A stretch of 64,000 nucleotides of DNA, taken from the IMG/VR virus record IMGVR_UViG_3300049460_000369, one strand, 5' to 3'. Under the pieces are notes generated by a model. That model ran no database searches and was not told where the DNA came from. It saw only the letters and a program-made list of their open reading frames with translations. The position numbers and the translations under genes are program-made. The DNA is from an uncultured virus (IMG/VR IMGVR_UViG_3300049460_000369). Its lineage: Duplodnaviria > Heunggongvirae > Uroviricota > Caudoviricetes. Positions 2,615 through 63,407 of the stretch are shown here, in pieces; position 1 is the stretch's first letter, and the number at the start of each line of letters is the position of its first letter.

Positions 2615-2935
2615 ATGTCGTCTTATACAATCAATTGGGTTGGACACGTCCTGAACCCAGCCGAACACCACGACAAGATCTGGGGCTACATGACGACCTC
2701 AGGTGGTGGCGTGTACACGTTCTGGGCCGGTCGTGGTAAGCCCATTCAGTTCAAACGCATGCCGTCGACCTGGACAGCCCAGGAGGTGCGCGATACCAAA
2801 GCAAGCAAGCGCAAAGATCCATATCGCGTCAAGTCTGTTGAACAGATGAGCATTCTCTGGCCGGAGTTCAATGAACATCTGGAAAGCTGCTACGCGATGG
2901 CCAAACTGTCCGGAAAAATACGCACGGACGAGTAA
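2615..2935 (+). CDS. hypothetical protein (WGR-like W/G-rich motifs)
   Basis: AAGGAGG RBS before ATG 2615; DKIWG...FWAGRG. Confidence 0.7.
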   Translation: MSSYTINWVGHVLNPAEHHDKIWGYMTTSGGGVYTFWAGRGKPIQFKRMPSTWTAQEVRDTKASKRKDPYRVKSVEQMSILWPEFNEHLESCYAMAKLSGKIRTDE

Positions 2936-2960
2936 CACAATAGCTATTTAGGAGATAAAA

Positions 2961-3653
2961 ATTCGAATCCTCGGAAAACAACACGACTTCTATGACAGTG
3001 CATTGGCGCACGGCGCCGACAACCGCGTCGTATTCATGCGCGAGCTGCAAGAATTCAAAAGCGAACAAGTGCCAGTAACTGCCGTCAGCCGTGTTCATGG
3101 TTTGAACCACGCCCGCAAGACCAACCACCTGGAGATGAATTTCACCTGTGTGACGGTGGGACTCTGCGGTAAGGTTTATCGCGGGATCAACATTGATGTT
3201 GTCCCCAAAATGTTCAATGACGGCGGATTTGAACGCGTCAACAAAACGGTCTACGACTTCGACACCTTCATGGCTATCGTCAATGAACATGAAGTTGAGC
3301 TGACCCAAACCCGGTACAAATGGCAGAGGCTGCCAGAGCTGGTGGATCAGATTAAAGCCTACTTTGCTGCTCAGGGCACCAATGAATGGGAAGACTTCAT
3401 GGTCACCAACAAGCTGGTGACTTTGGCACACGGCATTGGCCCTCACTACCAAGGCAACGGCACTCTGAAGCAGTACGAATTTTACCGCGTCATGGATGCG
3501 TTCCAGACGTATCAGGAAATTGACATGTATGTTTCCGGCACGCTTACCACACCGGATGCACCAATGATCGAACTGACTGAAAAGGATCGCGTCCAGCAGC
3601 ACGGCTTCGACAAATATTCGTTCCGGCACAAACCACAAGTGAAAAAAGCTTGA
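2961..3653 (+). CDS. phage hypothetical protein with probable ATT (AUU) start
   Basis: TAGGAG at 2949-2954, in-frame ATT 6 nt later; reads (M)RILGKQHDFYD...HGFDKYSFRH. Confidence 0.65.
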   Translation: MRILGKQHDFYDSALAHGADNRVVFMRELQEFKSEQVPVTAVSRVHGLNHARKTNHLEMNFTCVTVGLCGKVYRGINIDVVPKMFNDGGFERVNKTVYDFDTFMAIVNEHEVELTQTRYKWQRLPELVDQIKAYFAAQGTNEWEDFMVTNKLVTLAHGIGPHYQGNGTLKQYEFYRVMDAFQTYQEIDMYVSGTLTTPDAPMIELTEKDRVQQHGFDKYSFRHKPQVKKA

Positions 3654-10670: not shown

Positions 10671-10730
10671 TTAAGATATGTAATCATGCAGTTGTGGTGA
10701 ATAAACGCCACATTCACTTAGGAGCACATC

Positions 10731-11162
10731 ATGTTGCCACATACGTAGATTTCTGAATTTGTTCTTCCAACCCCTTCCGAGGCAATTGCTGATCCGTACC
10801 GTTTGTACGCGATTATGCGTCAAGACCTCGACATGCCAGCGGGCAAACTGTCCTCGCAAACTGGCCATGCGTATGTAAACGCAATTCTTCAGAGCCTGAA
10901 GCTGCGTCCCGAAATCGTCACCGAATATCAGGGTGATGCTGACATCGGTACGAAATGCTGCTTGGCTGCAAAAAACGAAGCAAAAATTCTCGAAGCATAT
11001 GAACGTGCTCAGGAAGCTGGTATTCCTTGTTCACTCATTATCGACGAGCATCACATCCTTCCACCGCACTTCGACGGCAAACCGATCATCACTGGTCTGG
11101 GCATTGGCCCTGCACGACGTCACGAAGTACCGTTCCTCAAGAGGTTTTCCGTATGGAAATGA
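10731..11162 (+). CDS. pth2: peptidyl-tRNA hydrolase type 2 (Pth2 family) with in-frame amber codon at codon 6
   Basis: MRQDLDMPAGKLSSQTGHA...KCCL...GIGP motifs; TAGGAG RBS before ATG 10731; TAG at 10746-10748 in frame with the Pth2 domain. Confidence 0.8.
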
Positions 11163-11975: not shown

Positions 11976-12518
11976 ATGGCAGTATATGGACTGAAACCAG
12001 CCTTCAAAGACCTGGCTGGATACAAACAATGGCGTAAAGTGTGGGCAGAAACTTACACGGTGCTGACCAGCAAGATCCGCAAAAACAAAATGAAGCTGAT
12101 CGAACTGCAACGCACGCTTGGCACGCAAGATGCATCAACCCGTAAAGCCCAGCAGATTCTGCGGGGTGAGCGTGCAATGGCCTTCAAGCTGAATAGCCTG
12201 TTGGATGAGGCAAAGATCCGAATGCAGAACATCACGAAGATGCGCAAAGAGATCCAGGATCATGTGGCTCAATTCCCACTCGAAATGGAATGCTGTAAGA
12301 ATGTTGACTTCCATTTCAACAAGAAGCATCTGGAACATGACTTTGTTCCAATGTGGATCGTGAAGGCCAAAGGCCAAAGTTTTTATGTGCAGCATGTTGA
12401 ATCGCGAGCAACATGGACAACTCGTGAAACGCCGGATCATCCGGCGACCAAAGGCGCAATTCGTTTTAAATCGTGTAATGTCAGCATCTCTGCTGACGGC
12501 GTAGCAACTATCTATTAA
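11976..12518 (+). CDS. hypothetical protein
   Basis: 180 aa, GGAG RBS. Confidence 0.75.
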   Translation: MAVYGLKPAFKDLAGYKQWRKVWAETYTVLTSKIRKNKMKLIELQRTLGTQDASTRKAQQILRGERAMAFKLNSLLDEAKIRMQNITKMRKEIQDHVAQFPLEMECCKNVDFHFNKKHLEHDFVPMWIVKAKGQSFYVQHVESRATWTTRETPDHPATKGAIRFKSCNVSISADGVATIY

Positions 12519-12536
12519 TTGAAAAGGAAGAACATC

Positions 12537-12818
12537 ATGAACGCAATCACTATCAACTTCACCACCCGTGCAACCTACCTGGAATTCAAGGCCGAATGGT
12601 CTGCCCAATACAAGGACACGGTCAACGCTATCCGTCAGGCGAAGCTGGACCTGAAGGAATGTCACCGTAAAAACCAGGACACGTATGCGACGCACAAAGC
12701 TCTGCGTGAGCTGCGTCAGGATATTGTGGATTTGGCTGCATTGAAAGCCGAAGCGAAGGTTGAAGCAAACCGTCAGTACCACGAGCAAAATACGGTTGAA
12801 GTAGCAGTCGCGGCTTAA
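12537..12818 (+). CDS. hypothetical helical protein
   Basis: AAGGAAG RBS before ATG 12537. Confidence 0.75.
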   Translation: MNAITINFTTRATYLEFKAEWSAQYKDTVNAIRQAKLDLKECHRKNQDTYATHKALRELRQDIVDLAALKAEAKVEANRQYHEQNTVEVAVAA

Positions 12819-14059: not shown

Positions 14060-14340
14060 GCTATATGCTAGTTGATGGCGTGGAAATGAATCGTAATCAT
14101 CCACGCACCTTCCAGATCCCATCCGCGATTGCCAAGGCGGGCGTCAAGGTTGGCGACTATGTGAAACTGGGCTTCTGCGAGGTTGGTCATGACAGTAACG
14201 AACGCATGTGGGTCAAGGTAACCAAGCGCGATGGCGACAAGTTTGAAGGGTACCTTGACAATGACCCAGCGTTCCTGACCTGCATCAAGTGGCAGGATAA
14301 AGTGGTGTTCGAATCGCGCCACATCATTAATTTGCCTTGA
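14056..14340 (+). CDS. DUF2314/YegJ-like protein
   Basis: GDYVKLGF...ERMWVKV...GYLDNDP; GGAGG RBS. Confidence 0.65.
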   Translation: MSYMLVDGVEMNRNHPRTFQIPSAIAKAGVKVGDYVKLGFCEVGHDSNERMWVKVTKRDGDKFEGYLDNDPAFLTCIKWQDKVVFESRHIINLP

Positions 14341-14365
14341 CAAAAAGTTTTCGTTCGTTTAATAT
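14337..14365 (+). promoter_or_regulatory. sigma70 promoter for the tRNA (TTGACA-N17-TAATAT)
   Basis: Perfect -35, 17-nt spacer, about 10 nt upstream of tRNA. Confidence 0.7.
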
Positions 14366-14374
14366 AGACGACAT

Positions 14375-14453
14375 GGGGATATAGCTCAATTGGTTAGAGC
14401 AGGGGGCACTCTAAACCCCAAGGTCTCCGGTTCGATTCCGGATATCCTCACCA
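14375..14453 (+). tRNA. tRNA with CUA (amber-suppressor) anticodon and atypical anticodon arm
   Basis: Acceptor GGGGATA/TATCCTC, D arm GCTC/GAGC, T arm TCCGG-TTCGATT-CCGGA, encoded ACCA; anticodon region GGGGG-CA-CT-CTA-AA-CCCC. Confidence 0.85.
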
Positions 14454-14476: not shown

Positions 14477-14503
14477 GAGCCCGCGCCTTGCGGGCTTCTT
14501 TTT
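14477..14503 (+). terminator. intrinsic terminator after tRNA
   Basis: AGCCCGC-GCCTT-GCGGGCT followed by T-run. Confidence 0.75.
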
Positions 14504-14507
14504 GACC

Positions 14508-14966
14508 ATGATAACAATAAAACCGCTCACCTATAATCCCTTCGCAGTTCATGATGGCTTCCGCGACATTTGGCCGCAACGTGACAATGCCCCAGAGGAG
14601 GATGTGCTGTATTACCTGGAAGCCAGCCCACCAGAATTCAAATTTCTGATCTGTTTGAATGATCAGCCAATTGGCCTTACCGGCTATTGGCCGCTAACCG
14701 TAGATTCGATGGGAATGGCGTGGAGTGGTTTAATCAAAAGCCAGCAGGGCAAGGGATACTGGCCCCAAGCATTCAAACTGGTACTTGATCACATGCGCGC
14801 CGCTTACCCTGAGATCAAATACGCTATCGAGCCCATGCCACAAGAACGAGTCAACGAACTTGGCCCATACTATGAGAAACTGGGCTTCGTAAACATGAAT
14901 GTAATCATGGACCACCCAGAGCTCTATGATGCAGTAACATGGATCGAATACCGCTACACCCTGTAA
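14508..14966 (+). CDS. GNAT-family N-acetyltransferase
   Basis: PIGLTG, QQGKGYW, YYEKLGF motifs. Confidence 0.7.
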   Translation: MITIKPLTYNPFAVHDGFRDIWPQRDNAPEEDVLYYLEASPPEFKFLICLNDQPIGLTGYWPLTVDSMGMAWSGLIKSQQGKGYWPQAFKLVLDHMRAAYPEIKYAIEPMPQERVNELGPYYEKLGFVNMNVIMDHPELYDAVTWIEYRYTL

Positions 14967-16159: not shown

Positions 16160-16468
16160 ATGCGCGAACACTTGAATTGGTACGAAGTTCAACAGCTAGT
16201 GGCTGGCTTTAGCGACAAGACGTCGTATCAATATTTCAAGGCTGAAATGAAAGCTCGCTTCAACGATTTGTCGCAGCAGATCGTTGAAGCAAAGGCAATC
16301 ATGCACGAAGCCCAGCGCATGGCTGCCGAAGATAATACCAAGCCAAATCGCATCGCTATGTCGATCGCACAGAATCATCGCCGATACCTGCGTCGTCAGG
16401 CAGAAACAATCAACGCTGCCCGCTATACCGCCAAGCAGCGCGCAATCAAACTGGCACAAGCCAAGTAA
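16160..16468 (+). CDS. hypothetical protein
   Basis: AGGAG RBS. Confidence 0.75.
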   Translation: MREHLNWYEVQQLVAGFSDKTSYQYFKAEMKARFNDLSQQIVEAKAIMHEAQRMAAEDNTKPNRIAMSIAQNHRRYLRRQAETINAARYTAKQRAIKLAQAK

Positions 16469-18231: not shown

Positions 18232-18455
18232 TGTCATTATACATCTGCGTCACAAATCCACGCCACCTGCAAGAACGTCGCGGCTATAGCTTACCTGCCC
18301 CAGAAGTGTTAGGCTGGTTGAAAACTAACCTCGATGGTGAATACGACGTCGAGCCCTATAGCAGTGGTTGTGATATTCATTTCAGCTCTGAAGCCGCTGC
18401 TGCATTTTATAAGCTGACCTGGTTTGGTCGCGAACCTGAAGCAATCTGTGAATAA
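18231..18455 (+). CDS. FKL-motif paralog family member
   Basis: VLGWLKTN...HFSSEAAAAFYKLTW. Confidence 0.7.
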   Translation: MSLYICVTNPRHLQERRGYSLPAPEVLGWLKTNLDGEYDVEPYSSGCDIHFSSEAAAAFYKLTWFGREPEAICE

Positions 18456-19680
18456 ACTATACGACGAGCTTTTTGCTCCAACGATTAACTGGTCCAACTT
18501 GTGCGAGATCATCCCTGACCTTGCCAAGCTGAACCAGACTCCCCAAGACGTACGCCATCATACCGAAGGCGACGTGGGCATCCACACACGCATGTGCCTT
18601 GACGAGCTGCGCAATGACGTCAAATGGCAAGCATTGACTTCTGTCGACCAATACAAATGCTTGTTGGCCGTATTGATGCACGACATCGCAAAGCCACAGC
18701 GCACCGTGTTGGAAGATGATGGCACCATTTCGTCCAAGGGCCACAGTGCAGCTGGTAACATCCAGACCCGAGGCATCTTGTGGCAGCTTGGGGTTGATCC
18801 TGCAATCCGTGAGTTTGCTTGCCGTGTTGCCAATTATCACCAACTTCCATTCTATCTGGAGAATCATCCAGCCCGTGACTACGAAATGCGCAAGCTGTCG
18901 TTGACATTGCCATTGAATCTGCTGTCGATTTGCAGTCGTGCCGATGCCGCTGGGCGTTTGACCACGCCACCAGAGAACAGGCAAAAGACTTTCGATGCTA
19001 TTGATATGTTCGATCTGTATGCCGAGGATCTTGGCCTCTGGAATAAACCGATGGTGCATGACAGTTTGACTGAACGCGGCATCTACCTGGAGAAACGCGG
19101 CGCGATTGATCCGTCGTACCCTTGGCCTACTGCCCACAAACGTGGTCTCCTGATCGCCATGTGTGGTTTGCCATGTTCAGGCAAAAGCACCATTTCAACT
19201 GCTTGGGACATTCCGGTAATCGGATTGGACTGGGCCCGAGAAGAATTGGATGTCGGCCACGGTGATGCAAAGGGTGAAGGTCAAGCCAAACAAAAAGCGT
19301 CTGCTGAACTGAAAGCACTTCTTGGCGCCGGTTCGTCTGTTGTGTTTGATGCAACCAACTTGGAGAAAGACAAACGTGATCGTTTGGTCTCCACCGCTTC
19401 GGCATACTTAGCCGACACGGTGTTCATTCATGTGGAGTCCACATATGAAATGTGGTTGAAACAGATCAAGAGCCGGGGCGATACTAGCCCAAGTGATAAA
19501 ACGCTTCAGGGCATGATACGTCGCTGGGGAGCACCGTTGGGTGACGAGGGTTCGGCCCAAGTGTTTATTAATGATGGAAGCGTCATAGATGTCTGGGGAT
19601 CGCTTAAAATGTCAGCGGCGGCGTCAGTTATCGCACGGGCGGAATACTTGAACAAGAATCCATTGGGGAAGCCCATCTAG
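18448..19680 (+). CDS. HD-domain phosphohydrolase fused to AAA_33 P-loop kinase (polynucleotide kinase/phosphatase-like)
   Basis: HHTEGDV..HT, MHDIAK, AD..GR; GLPCSGKST Walker A, VFDATNL. Confidence 0.85.
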   Translation: MNKLYDELFAPTINWSNLCEIIPDLAKLNQTPQDVRHHTEGDVGIHTRMCLDELRNDVKWQALTSVDQYKCLLAVLMHDIAKPQRTVLEDDGTISSKGHSAAGNIQTRGILWQLGVDPAIREFACRVANYHQLPFYLENHPARDYEMRKLSLTLPLNLLSICSRADAAGRLTTPPENRQKTFDAIDMFDLYAEDLGLWNKPMVHDSLTERGIYLEKRGAIDPSYPWPTAHKRGLLIAMCGLPCSGKSTISTAWDIPVIGLDWAREELDVGHGDAKGEGQAKQKASAELKALLGAGSSVVFDATNLEKDKRDRLVSTASAYLADTVFIHVESTYEMWLKQIKSRGDTSPSDKTLQGMIRRWGAPLGDEGSAQVFINDGSVIDVWGSLKMSAAASVIARAEYLNKNPLGKPI

Positions 19681-36300: not shown

Positions 36301-36504
36301 ATGACCTATAATAAAAAGAACTTCAATGTCGACGATCGTGTGGTAATTGTTGCAACAAACGGCATCCTGGATGGGATGACTGGTAGTGTGCTGGCAAAAA
36401 TGGCAACGCCAAGTATCACCGATGACTATATCGTGGCTTACGACTTGCCAGTAAATGGTCAAAAGGCACTTGTGATCACCGAAGCTTGCTTGGAGGCCGT
36501 ATAA
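36301..36504 (+). CDS. small KOW/SH3-like hypothetical protein
   Basis: FNVDDRVVI...GMTGSV. Confidence 0.6.
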   Translation: MTYNKKNFNVDDRVVIVATNGILDGMTGSVLAKMATPSITDDYIVAYDLPVNGQKALVITEACLEAV

Positions 36505-37394
36505 TGGTTTGCGTAACTAAGAAACTCGTTGAGCAAAAGCTCATCGCGCCACCTGCCTTCGTACATGAAAATCTCGCCTATGAAACTCTCATGGGCTCGC
36601 AAAGCTATGGCGTAAGTTCAGACGACAGTGACTGGGATATCTACGGCTTCTGTGTACCAGAAAAGGAATTGGTTTTCCCACATTTGAGTGGTGAGATTCT
36701 GGGCTTTGGCCGTCAAGTGCAAGCATTTGGTCAGTATCAGGAACATCATGTGATGAGTATGGATGGTCAGAAAGAGTATGACATCCAGATCTTCAACATC
36801 GTGAAGTTCTTCCAACTGGCAATGGACAACAACCCGAACATCGTGGACTCATTGTTCACGCCTGATCGTTGCATCCTGCACTCAAACAACATCGGCAAGA
36901 TGGTTCGCGATCAACGCGAGATCTTCCTGCATAAAGGCTCATGGCACAAGTTTAAAGGCTATGCCTACAGTCAACTGAGTAAAATTGGACAGAAGGCCAA
37001 TGCCCAAAATCCAAAGCGCCAGGCGTCTATTGTTGAGTTTGGCTACGACGTGAAATTTGCATACCATGTTGTTCGTCTCTTGGATGAATGCGAGCAGATT
37101 TTGATGTCGGGTACTCTGAACCTGGAACAGAATCGCGAACAGCTCAAGAGTATTCGCCGGGGCGAATGGACGCTCCAGGAGATCAACGATCACTTTGCCA
37201 AGAAGGAAAAAGATCTCGAGTCTCTGTACCATTCAAGTTCTTTGCGTTATAGTCCTGACGAAAGCCAGATCAAAGCGCTGTTGCTGCAATGTCTGGAAGA
37301 ACAATACGGTTCATTGAGTGACTTGATTCAGAAAGAGAATCGCACACAAGATATGATCCGCGATATCGAAGCAACTTTGGCAAAATACAAATGA
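36504..37394 (+). CDS. Pol-beta-superfamily nucleotidyltransferase (RlaP/PF10127-like)
   Basis: GSQSYG...SDWDIYG, NPN.VD.LF, YDVKFAYH.VRL, LK.IR.G. Confidence 0.85.
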   Translation: MVCVTKKLVEQKLIAPPAFVHENLAYETLMGSQSYGVSSDDSDWDIYGFCVPEKELVFPHLSGEILGFGRQVQAFGQYQEHHVMSMDGQKEYDIQIFNIVKFFQLAMDNNPNIVDSLFTPDRCILHSNNIGKMVRDQREIFLHKGSWHKFKGYAYSQLSKIGQKANAQNPKRQASIVEFGYDVKFAYHVVRLLDECEQILMSGTLNLEQNREQLKSIRRGEWTLQEINDHFAKKEKDLESLYHSSSLRYSPDESQIKALLLQCLEEQYGSLSDLIQKENRTQDMIRDIEATLAKYK

Positions 37395-62876: not shown

Positions 62877-63407
62877 TTGCAAAAAACTTTAGAGATTAAC
62901 GATCGTATCAAAGCAACACAGGTACGTTTCATTGATGAAAACGGCGTGCAAAAAGGCATCATCAGTTTGCGTGAAGCACTGTATCACGCAAATGCCGCAA
63001 ATCTGGATCTGGTTAAGATCGCGGAATCCAACCCACCAGTTTGCAAAGTGCTCGATGCTGGCAAATACCAGTATGAACAACAAAAGCTGCAAAAGCTGCA
63101 AGCCAAAAAACAACGTGAAGCAATCGTTGAATTGAAAGAAGTACAATTGCGTCCTGCTATTGATACCCATGACCTGGAGATCAAAGCACGTAAGGCTCGA
63201 GGCTTCTTGGACGACGGCAACAAAGTGAAAGTTGTTGTCCGACTCCATGGCCGCGAACGCTCAATGAAACACAAAGGCCACGAAGTCATCAACACGTTCA
63301 TTACCGCAATGGGCGAATGCAAGAAAGATGGCAACGTGACAGAGAACGGTAACCAGATTACCGTGATCCTAACAGCCAATACCCCCAAAGCAGTAAAGCC
63401 TGCTTGA
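62877..63407 (+). CDS. infC: translation initiation factor IF-3 (TTG start)
   Basis: IN.RI....VR.I, A...LDLV.I...PPVCK, KEVQLRP.ID.HD, KVKV...GRE. Confidence 0.92.
   Translation: MQKTLEINDRIKATQVRFIDENGVQKGIISLREALYHANAANLDLVKIAESNPPVCKVLDAGKYQYEQQKLQKLQAKKQREAIVELKEVQLRPAIDTHDLEIKARKARGFLDDGNKVKVVVRLHGRERSMKHKGHEVINTFITAMGECKKDGNVTENGNQITVILTANTPKAVKPA

Follow-up and report, generated by a model that had tools for sequence, protein, structure and literature searches.

The stretch of DNA analysed here, 64,000 nucleotides of an uncultured virus of the Caudoviricetes (IMG/VR IMGVR_UViG_3300049460_000369) and called the window throughout, contains a tRNA gene whose CUA anticodon lies in a loop enlarged to nine nucleotides by an inserted CA dinucleotide, and 3.2 kb upstream a gene for a predicted peptidyl-tRNA hydrolase of the canonical Pth2 type whose sixth codon is TAG (Table 1). 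That the former is a real and conserved tRNA gene was confirmed by sequence comparison. On balance, we lean towards the reading that this tRNA is a weakened amber suppressor and, as a key, opens a stop-codon gate in the Pth2 gene of the same phage.

Table 1. Positions of the tRNA gene, the Pth2 gene and associated features in the window
Feature	Position	Strand	Remarks
tRNA gene, CUA anticodon, A73, encoded CCA, 9-nt anticodon loop	14375..14453	+	79 nt
CA dinucleotide inserted between G31 and C32	14407..14408	+	Site of the single C31.5 in SufJ, according to PMC4238358
CUA anticodon, preceded by C32-U33, followed by A37-A38	14411..14413	+	Sequence
Putative sigma70-like promoter, TTGACA-17-TAATAT	14337..14365	+	Ends 9 nt before the tRNA gene; by consensus match (10/12)
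Intrinsic-terminator-like hairpin (14477-14497) and T run	14477..14504	+	By consensus match
Predicted Pth2-type peptidyl-tRNA hydrolase gene	10731..11162	+	TAG at codon 6, domain wholly 3' of the stop; similarity
Putative amber gate: AGGAG, ATG (10731), four codons, TAG (10746-10748), then A	10720..10748	+	Sequence
GNAT-like gene	14508..14966	+	Pfam matches below cut-off; directly after the terminator
Short class II synthetase-like protein, 228 aa	37791-38477		Similarity; 23 kb from the tRNA gene

The tRNA gene matched the Rfam tRNA model (RF00005) with 57.8 bits (E = 7e-10, cut-off 29), the anticodon loop being longer than in the model by 2 nt, and its pair table contains the acceptor stem, the D and T arms and the CCA end of a cloverleaf. 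The acceptor with G2.U71, A73 and encoded CCA and the canonical D and T arms had been described correctly in the first-pass annotation of this DNA; the acceptor also contains G1-C72, and its G2.U71 wobble is private to the window and absent from the three other tRNAs described below. The anticodon arm, given there as A-GGGGG-CA-CT-CTA-AA-CCCC-A with a 4-bp stem and a 9-nt loop, was also found as stated. A26 is followed by GGGGG (14402-14406), the inserted CA, CU-CUA-AA (14409-14415) and CCCCA (14416-14420), which form a stem of four G-C pairs with a G27.A43 mismatch and the loop CACUCUAAA. A canonical elongator tRNA with a 5-bp stem and a 7-nt loop is excluded by this arrangement. The 7-mer CU-CUA-AA is identical to that of amber tRNAs with a normal arm, and it places U33, CUA and a purine at position 37 as in an amber suppressor.

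ARAGORN, proposed as a check in the first-pass annotation, detected this gene as the sole tRNA in the window, but missed the amber anticodon and, reading the middle of the 9-nt loop, reported Arg(tct). In a tRNA-Arg(UCU), U33 ahead of UCU and A20 would be expected; here, UCU follows a C and position 20 is occupied by U, and the call was rejected. Another label given to CUA tRNAs by ARAGORN and in GenBank is tRNA-Pyl, which shares the CUA anticodon and an A-rich 3' side of the loop. However, in tRNA-Pyl the anticodon stem has 6 bp, the D and variable loops are short, and G18G19 and TTC are missing, while the window tRNA keeps G18G19, TTC, two bases at positions 8-9 and a 5-nt variable loop and has no 6-bp stem; this identity was ruled out as well. 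Promoter and terminator both match their consensus, although "near-perfect", the wording of the first annotation, was generous for the promoter. One Logan contig spans the tRNA at a depth of 11.6 without variant letters or indels, and the run behind it may be the window's own source.

The loop CACUCUAAA recurs in three other phage contigs, L158, L164/L174 (G001/G002) and L199 (G003), and tRNAs with this loop are referred to as CA-loop tRNAs. A metagenome scan that left the two inserted letters free gave one match, L158, carrying CA in a different tRNA body, and IMG/VR scans added the other two sequence types. An IMG/VR scan with free inserted letters gave 64 loci; with the window and L158 counted in, 18 tRNA-like sequences were parsed, and all four carriers of a 2-nt 5' insert among them have CA; another IMG/VR scan had CACTCTAAA forced in its pattern and is therefore uninformative on the choice of CA. 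Across the four members, 80 of 84 stem cells are paired, and 15 of 21 pairs are altered on both sides, with a stem identity of 14-23 out of 42. G1-C72, G31-C39, A73 and the loop are constant, and the acceptor stems differ. Decay of the gene, doubted from the outset, is unlikely because the same loop recurs with stems that differ and yet still pair. The first-pass annotation would have been refuted by homologues that combine a normal arm with a sense anticodon, the mark of a local pseudo-tRNA; instead, the identical CUA loop recurred. The four members may share an ancestor or have converged, 79 nt being compatible with either.

CUA tRNAs with normal arms are far more common, accounting for about 30 of 37 sequences in a set biased by the search patterns. 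Among the matches listed for a scan with any anticodon, 97 tRNA-like sequences were parsed; the arm was normal in 92 of them, and a single 2-nt insert other than CA turned up, in the non-amber loop of L275. Other inserts may occur at other anticodons. Blastn searches against cultured phages, with the tRNA region and 10.5-18 kb or with the tRNAs of L158, L164 and L199 as queries, yielded no CA-loop member among the matches listed; "tRNA-Arg" matches, found in Serratia phage BF and in Kaldavass, turned out to be ordinary Arg(UCU) genes. Two narrow patterns gave no match in IMG/VR, and a GTDB scan gave three matches, none of them tRNA-like. An antisense function of the loop was discarded, as the + strand of the window, the gene itself left aside, does not contain its complement.

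The beginning of the Pth2 gene reads AGGAG..ATG TTG CCA CAT ACG TAG ATT, with a strong predicted RBS ahead of the ATG and the whole Pth2 domain in frame behind the stop. The predicted protein matched four PDB sequences of solved Pth2 (best 2zv3, E = 2.7e-11), contains the GKxxxQxxHA motif as GKLSSQTGHA, and is 48% and 46% identical to its counterparts in Sinorhizobium phage Phosso and Agrobacterium phage Atu_ph07, respectively. Under the SD rule used, no other combination of SD, ATG, up to nine codons and TAG in frame with a long ORF was detected in the 64 kb. In-frame start codons past the TAG are present at residues 19, 23 and 29, all without SD, and they lie inside the first strand of the fold, which aligns with the start of solved Pth2. 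Since the sixth codon is a stop, synthesis of Pth2 probably needs a stop-reading tRNA, and codon 6 provides an in-frame UAG, a candidate target for an amber suppressor, in the genome that encodes the tRNA. Phosso carries two CUA tRNAs with normal arms, and therefore another tRNA could open the gate in the window phage: the contig is at least 205 kb long, the window covers 64 kb of it, and a normal CUA tRNA may be located on the remainder.

The window belongs to a jumbo phage from soil, with a topoisomerase subunit 62% identical to that of Phosso and 56% to that of Atu_ph07. TAG recoding (translation table 15) was ruled out for this phage, as TAG ends four of the 90 called genes in the window and table 15 barely lifts the coding cover (0.756 versus 0.768; G002 and G003 behave alike). 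Targets for C-terminal readthrough were not found. The GNAT-like gene begins four bases past the T run of the terminator and has no SD; it has one other homologue among nine candidates, with no shared context, and none in IMG/VR. In other systems, Pth reportedly undoes tRNA acetylation by GNAT toxins. The window also encodes a set of proteins for translation and RNA repair, an HD-kinase (18424-19680), an RlaP nucleotidyltransferase (36486-37394), the class II synthetase-like protein and an IF3-like protein (62877-63407), as well as three small ORFs (11976-12518, 12519-12818, 16160-16468) that look like paralogues of one helical family and have no library match.

Gates of the same pattern, in which an RBS and ATG are separated by one to six codons from a TAG and the domain continues in frame behind it, were recognized in many Pth2-like genes of cultured phages; the sample comprised 13 of 37 records, the others being mostly close relatives, and 5 of 67 records in a second listing. 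Of 36 Pth2 or Pth2-like genes listed, three ran off the locus and were left out of scoring. ATG..TAG gates were predicted in 17 of the 33 scorable genes, with a purine after the TAG in all 17, and there were no TAA or TGA gates among the 33. In L158, L164 and L199, a divergent Pth2-like gene is located 137-652 nt from the CA-loop tRNA. The L158 gene starts with ATG ATG TAG, 215 nt downstream of the tRNA, while those of L164 (652 nt away) and L199 (137 nt) are ungated. A second Pth2 of G003 is also ungated, and no other convincing gate was seen in the L164 and L199 genomes, which are 16% and 32% complete. In L047, a gate is present, yet the adjoining tRNA-like gene has no stop anticodon. A Pth2-like gene lies within 250 nt of two of four CA-loop, three of 25 normal amber, six of 88 "odd arm" and one of 304 "normal sense" tRNA genes, counts to be read with the choice of loci in mind, which were centred by pattern on odd and amber tRNAs, and with an "odd arm" class that is noisy. 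The single "normal sense" neighbour, in L040, is a misclassified 9-nt loop. Most proteins of the divergent Pth2-like family are devoid of the lysine of the GKxxxQ motif, which has a catalytic role, and for this reason their hydrolase activity is uncertain.

Whole phage records revealed a correspondence between gate codon and anticodon. A matching stop-reading tRNA is present in all 13 gated records versus one of seven ungated ones (RaK2, Hallingskeid, phiCbK, phiM12, LR756508, Kikimora and Milchi); the one is Milchi, whose amber tRNA is normal. Divergent tRNAs can escape a search by pattern. With several gated phages related to one another, the independent cases number fewer than 13, and Fisher tests, which disregard relatedness and predate the last five genomes, are given no weight. 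TAG gates coincide with CUA tRNAs in 12 of 12 phages, Phosso, XacN1, RsoM2USA, BF, Kaldavass, CBB, Arash, ME3, pT24, RAS14, Xoo-sp13 and LR756511; the seven from CBB onwards were chosen by protein similarity, and their tRNAs were found after the gene. The gate of Phosso reads ATG-AAG-TAT-TAG. In Atu_ph07, the orthologue of the window Pth2 has a TGA gate at codon 7, a UCA tRNA is present, described as the only suppressor there (PMC6102473), and the CUA tRNA pattern gave no match. Opal-pattern matches were examined in RaK2 (6 of 6), Hallingskeid (7 of 17) and Atu_ph07 (7 of 23). The suppressors of six of the 13 gated phages show a C31.A39 mismatch or C33, and the CA insertion may therefore be one of several ways to weaken a suppressor.

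A number of further unusual tRNA genes were noted in these data. In Atu_ph07 (L157, 23905-24024 and 35106-35214) and L474, tRNA-Tyr, tRNA-Ser(tga) and tRNA-Lys have anticodon-loop inserts of 26-48 nt, and the insert of tRNA-Tyr resembles a nested acceptor stem plus T arm. A 40-nt AAGGAT...ACAGCA element resides in the 5' strand of the anticodon arm of tRNA-like genes in L169 (about 2925-3046; also in L168, L176 and L181) and G003 (117752-117865); the loop of the L169 gene is an 8-nt ACTCTAAA. An amber tRNA-like gene in L161/L172 (2971-3044) has one extra A, again giving an 8-nt ACTCTAAA loop, and C73, in a phage that often stops at TAG. L158 (2810-3145) contains three odd tRNA-like genes in series, with a UUA loop, the CA-loop CUA and a 6-nt loop; the TAG-gated Pth2-like gene follows directly, together with an HD-like gene. 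In L013, L040, L047, L067, L079 and L104, Pth2-like genes adjoin tRNA-like genes whose stems have 6 bp or whose 9-nt loops are scrambled, and many more such arms are present in IMG/VR. The two CUA tRNAs of XacN1 (L407/L410) are identical in their D, anticodon and T-loop regions and differ in acceptor stems and discriminators (A73, G73). In Phosso (L156, 4972-8143), the gene for CysRS is grouped with that of a normal CUA tRNA and with a short SerRS-like core, 4.5 kb from the TAG-gated Pth2.

For the reading of a suppressor acting on a gate, the following course of events is conceivable. The window tRNA would be charged by a host synthetase, perhaps with lysine, a guess based on U35 and A73, which we take to be lysine identity elements. 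U33-CUA-AA would be stacked as usual, with the extra CA looped out on the 5' side as in SufJ, and UAG would be read in frame 0 with low efficiency. At the gate, the suppressor would compete with RF1, and efficient termination would release a peptide of five residues. With RF1 scarce or busy, also when peptidyl-tRNA accumulates, readthrough should increase, Pth2 would be made and tRNA recycled. The CA insertion would set the threshold, leaving a suppressor too poor to disturb normal TAG stops. Excess Pth2 could attack fMet-tRNA, a reason for tight control. According to the literature, an insertion at 31.5 is compatible with 0-frame decoding in the A site, the anticodon residues of SufJ staying in place (PMC4238358), Pth recycles peptidyl-tRNA and N-blocked aminoacyl-tRNA (PMC3488237), and Pth2 of jumbo phages is viewed as a means of ribosome rescue (PMC7824862). 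Like the window tRNA, SufJ has its insertion between 31 and 32; it arose as a selected mutant, has a sense anticodon and gained a single base, whereas the two-base insert around CUA is natural and recurrent. Four ideas on the odd arm had been offered in the first-pass annotation, whose interpretation is partly supported overall; the best fit is a limit on the efficiency of suppression, given that this phage has an in-frame TAG target of its own.

Some observations speak against a simple key. Two of the four CA-loop tRNAs adjoin ungated Pth2-like genes, Milchi combines a normal amber tRNA with an ungated Pth2, and Pth2-like genes are also found beside tRNA-like genes with scrambled, non-stop loops. 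The first of these would suit a look-alike that does not decode but ejects itself, being a substrate or partner of Pth2 or Pth2-like proteins: it would enter a ribosome stalled at UAG, accept the peptide and drop off, because the P site holds its enlarged loop poorly, after which Pth2 would free the peptide, the gate itself being opened by another suppressor or a near-cognate host tRNA. The neighbour counts are in line with this alternative, as are impaired P-site gripping, proposed for the 31.5 insertion (PMC4238358), and the acceptor stems, which are not conserved, so that the amino acid seems not to matter. On the other hand, these counts stem from loci fetched around odd or amber tRNAs and from a noisy class, and the divergent Pth2-like proteins, mostly lacking the GKxxxQ lysine, may not be hydrolases. 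Decoding followed by continued elongation is favoured because U33-CUA-A37-A38 is kept exactly and because gate codon and anticodon switch together in Atu_ph07. We regard the drop-off partner as a serious but clearly less probable explanation than the weakened suppressor. Slightly ahead of it, and still rather doubtful, is a broader proposal that draws on both: jumbo phages would possess a two-part, RNA-keyed termination module, consisting of a weakened stop-codon tRNA and a Pth2 locked behind the same stop, in which the tRNA senses a shortage of release factor and takes over release by peptide acceptance, drop-off and cleavage by Pth2, codon and anticodon being swapped jointly between lineages.

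The remaining explanations appear far less probable. Frameshifting, one of the ideas in the first annotation, would join two frames, either because the 9-nt loop decodes five bases (UAGAG) or through a +1 or +2 slip at UAG. The insertion is at the site of SufJ, which shifts +1 (PMC4238358), and five-base decoding has been reported at low efficiency (PMC11122139). Nevertheless, both gates beside CA-loop tRNAs require frame 0, and no target was found in the window, G002 and G003: none of the 4, 1 and 11 coding TAGs, respectively, is followed by a shifted continuation without its own start, and AG does not directly follow the stop in any of their 20 listed genes that end in TAG. We consider this very unlikely. 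A trifle less credible still is an orthogonal tRNA whose odd arm is an identity element for a phage synthetase, likewise suggested at first. The window does encode the class II synthetase-like protein, and the normal CUA tRNA of Phosso lies between CysRS and the short SerRS-like gene. However, the synthetase-like gene is distant from the tRNA (Table 1), belongs to a family present in 211 phage records, has no detected anticodon-binding domain and gave no significant pairwise match to the Phosso protein; together with the differing acceptor stems of the four members, this leaves the suggestion unsupported. Equally improbable, and largely refuted already, is the view that the amber tRNA has decayed, or that the assembly slipped, and that the other cases are due to chance. 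Odd arms are numerous in phage tRNA arrays, four sequence types were found, and the window may itself derive from the one run that supports it. Against this stand the same two letters at the same site, G31-C39 in all four members, compensated stems, promoter and terminator sequences that match their consensus intact, and the presence of a matching target gene.

TRNAs with a stop anticodon in phages that still stop at that codon have been described in XacN1, RsoM2USA and Atu_ph07, members of the same broad jumbo group, and the CA-loop tRNA is a variant of these: their loops have 7 nt, some with a 31.39 mismatch, whereas the window tRNA has a 2-nt insertion. XacN1 has two CUA tRNAs, and readthrough past 18 amber stops was examined without finding a target (PMC5852040); in the accessible parts of the respective reports, no target is named for the CUA tRNA of RsoM2USA (PMC8504454) or the UCA tRNA of Atu_ph07 (PMC6102473). 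The 5' ends of their Pth2 or Pth2-like genes are the candidate targets predicted here. The TAG-recoded crAss-like and Lak phages resemble the window in that a phage CUA tRNA is needed for in-frame TAG (bioRxiv 10.1101/2021.08.26.457843). Unlike these, the window phage shows no genome-wide recoding, one gene per stretch examined carries the in-frame TAG, at its very beginning, and the tRNA looks weakened. The closest regulatory likeness is prfB, the gene for RF2, which is autoregulated by an early in-frame UGA and escapes by +1 frameshifting without a special tRNA. As in prfB, an early stop in a translation-factor gene would report the supply of release factor, but the escape proposed here works by readthrough in frame 0 and yields Pth2, and a matched tRNA accompanies the gate. 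A synthetic feedforward loop with a suppressor tRNA has reportedly been built. Arrays of mycobacteriophages include a Pth2-like gene and a "Pyl" tRNA (PMC5966550), and the available text of PMC6514570 mentions neither Pth2 nor phages. In the literature searched, subscription papers and supplements apart, no published account of the 9-nt loop or of a Pth2 gate was found, and a stop-codon gate on a single gene is apparently undescribed.

Annotation tends to miss the gate, since Pth2 and Pth2-like genes are started late or left uncalled and the tRNAs are mislabelled as Arg, Pyl or Phe; in phage Arash (L429, 3301-3375), for example, the CUA tRNA is annotated as tRNA-Phe and the Pth2-like gene 1 kb away with a late start. 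If its members decode, a tRNA family that naturally keeps a 9-nt loop would show how far ribosomes tolerate loop expansion, which bears on genetic-code engineering. For the jumbo phages, the Pth2 gate, a stop at codon 2-8 that corresponds to the anticodon of the tRNA, is a candidate target of suppressor tRNAs that have so far been reported without one. Should the module reading be true, such a module would be the function of the suppressor tRNAs in jumbo phages that use the standard code.
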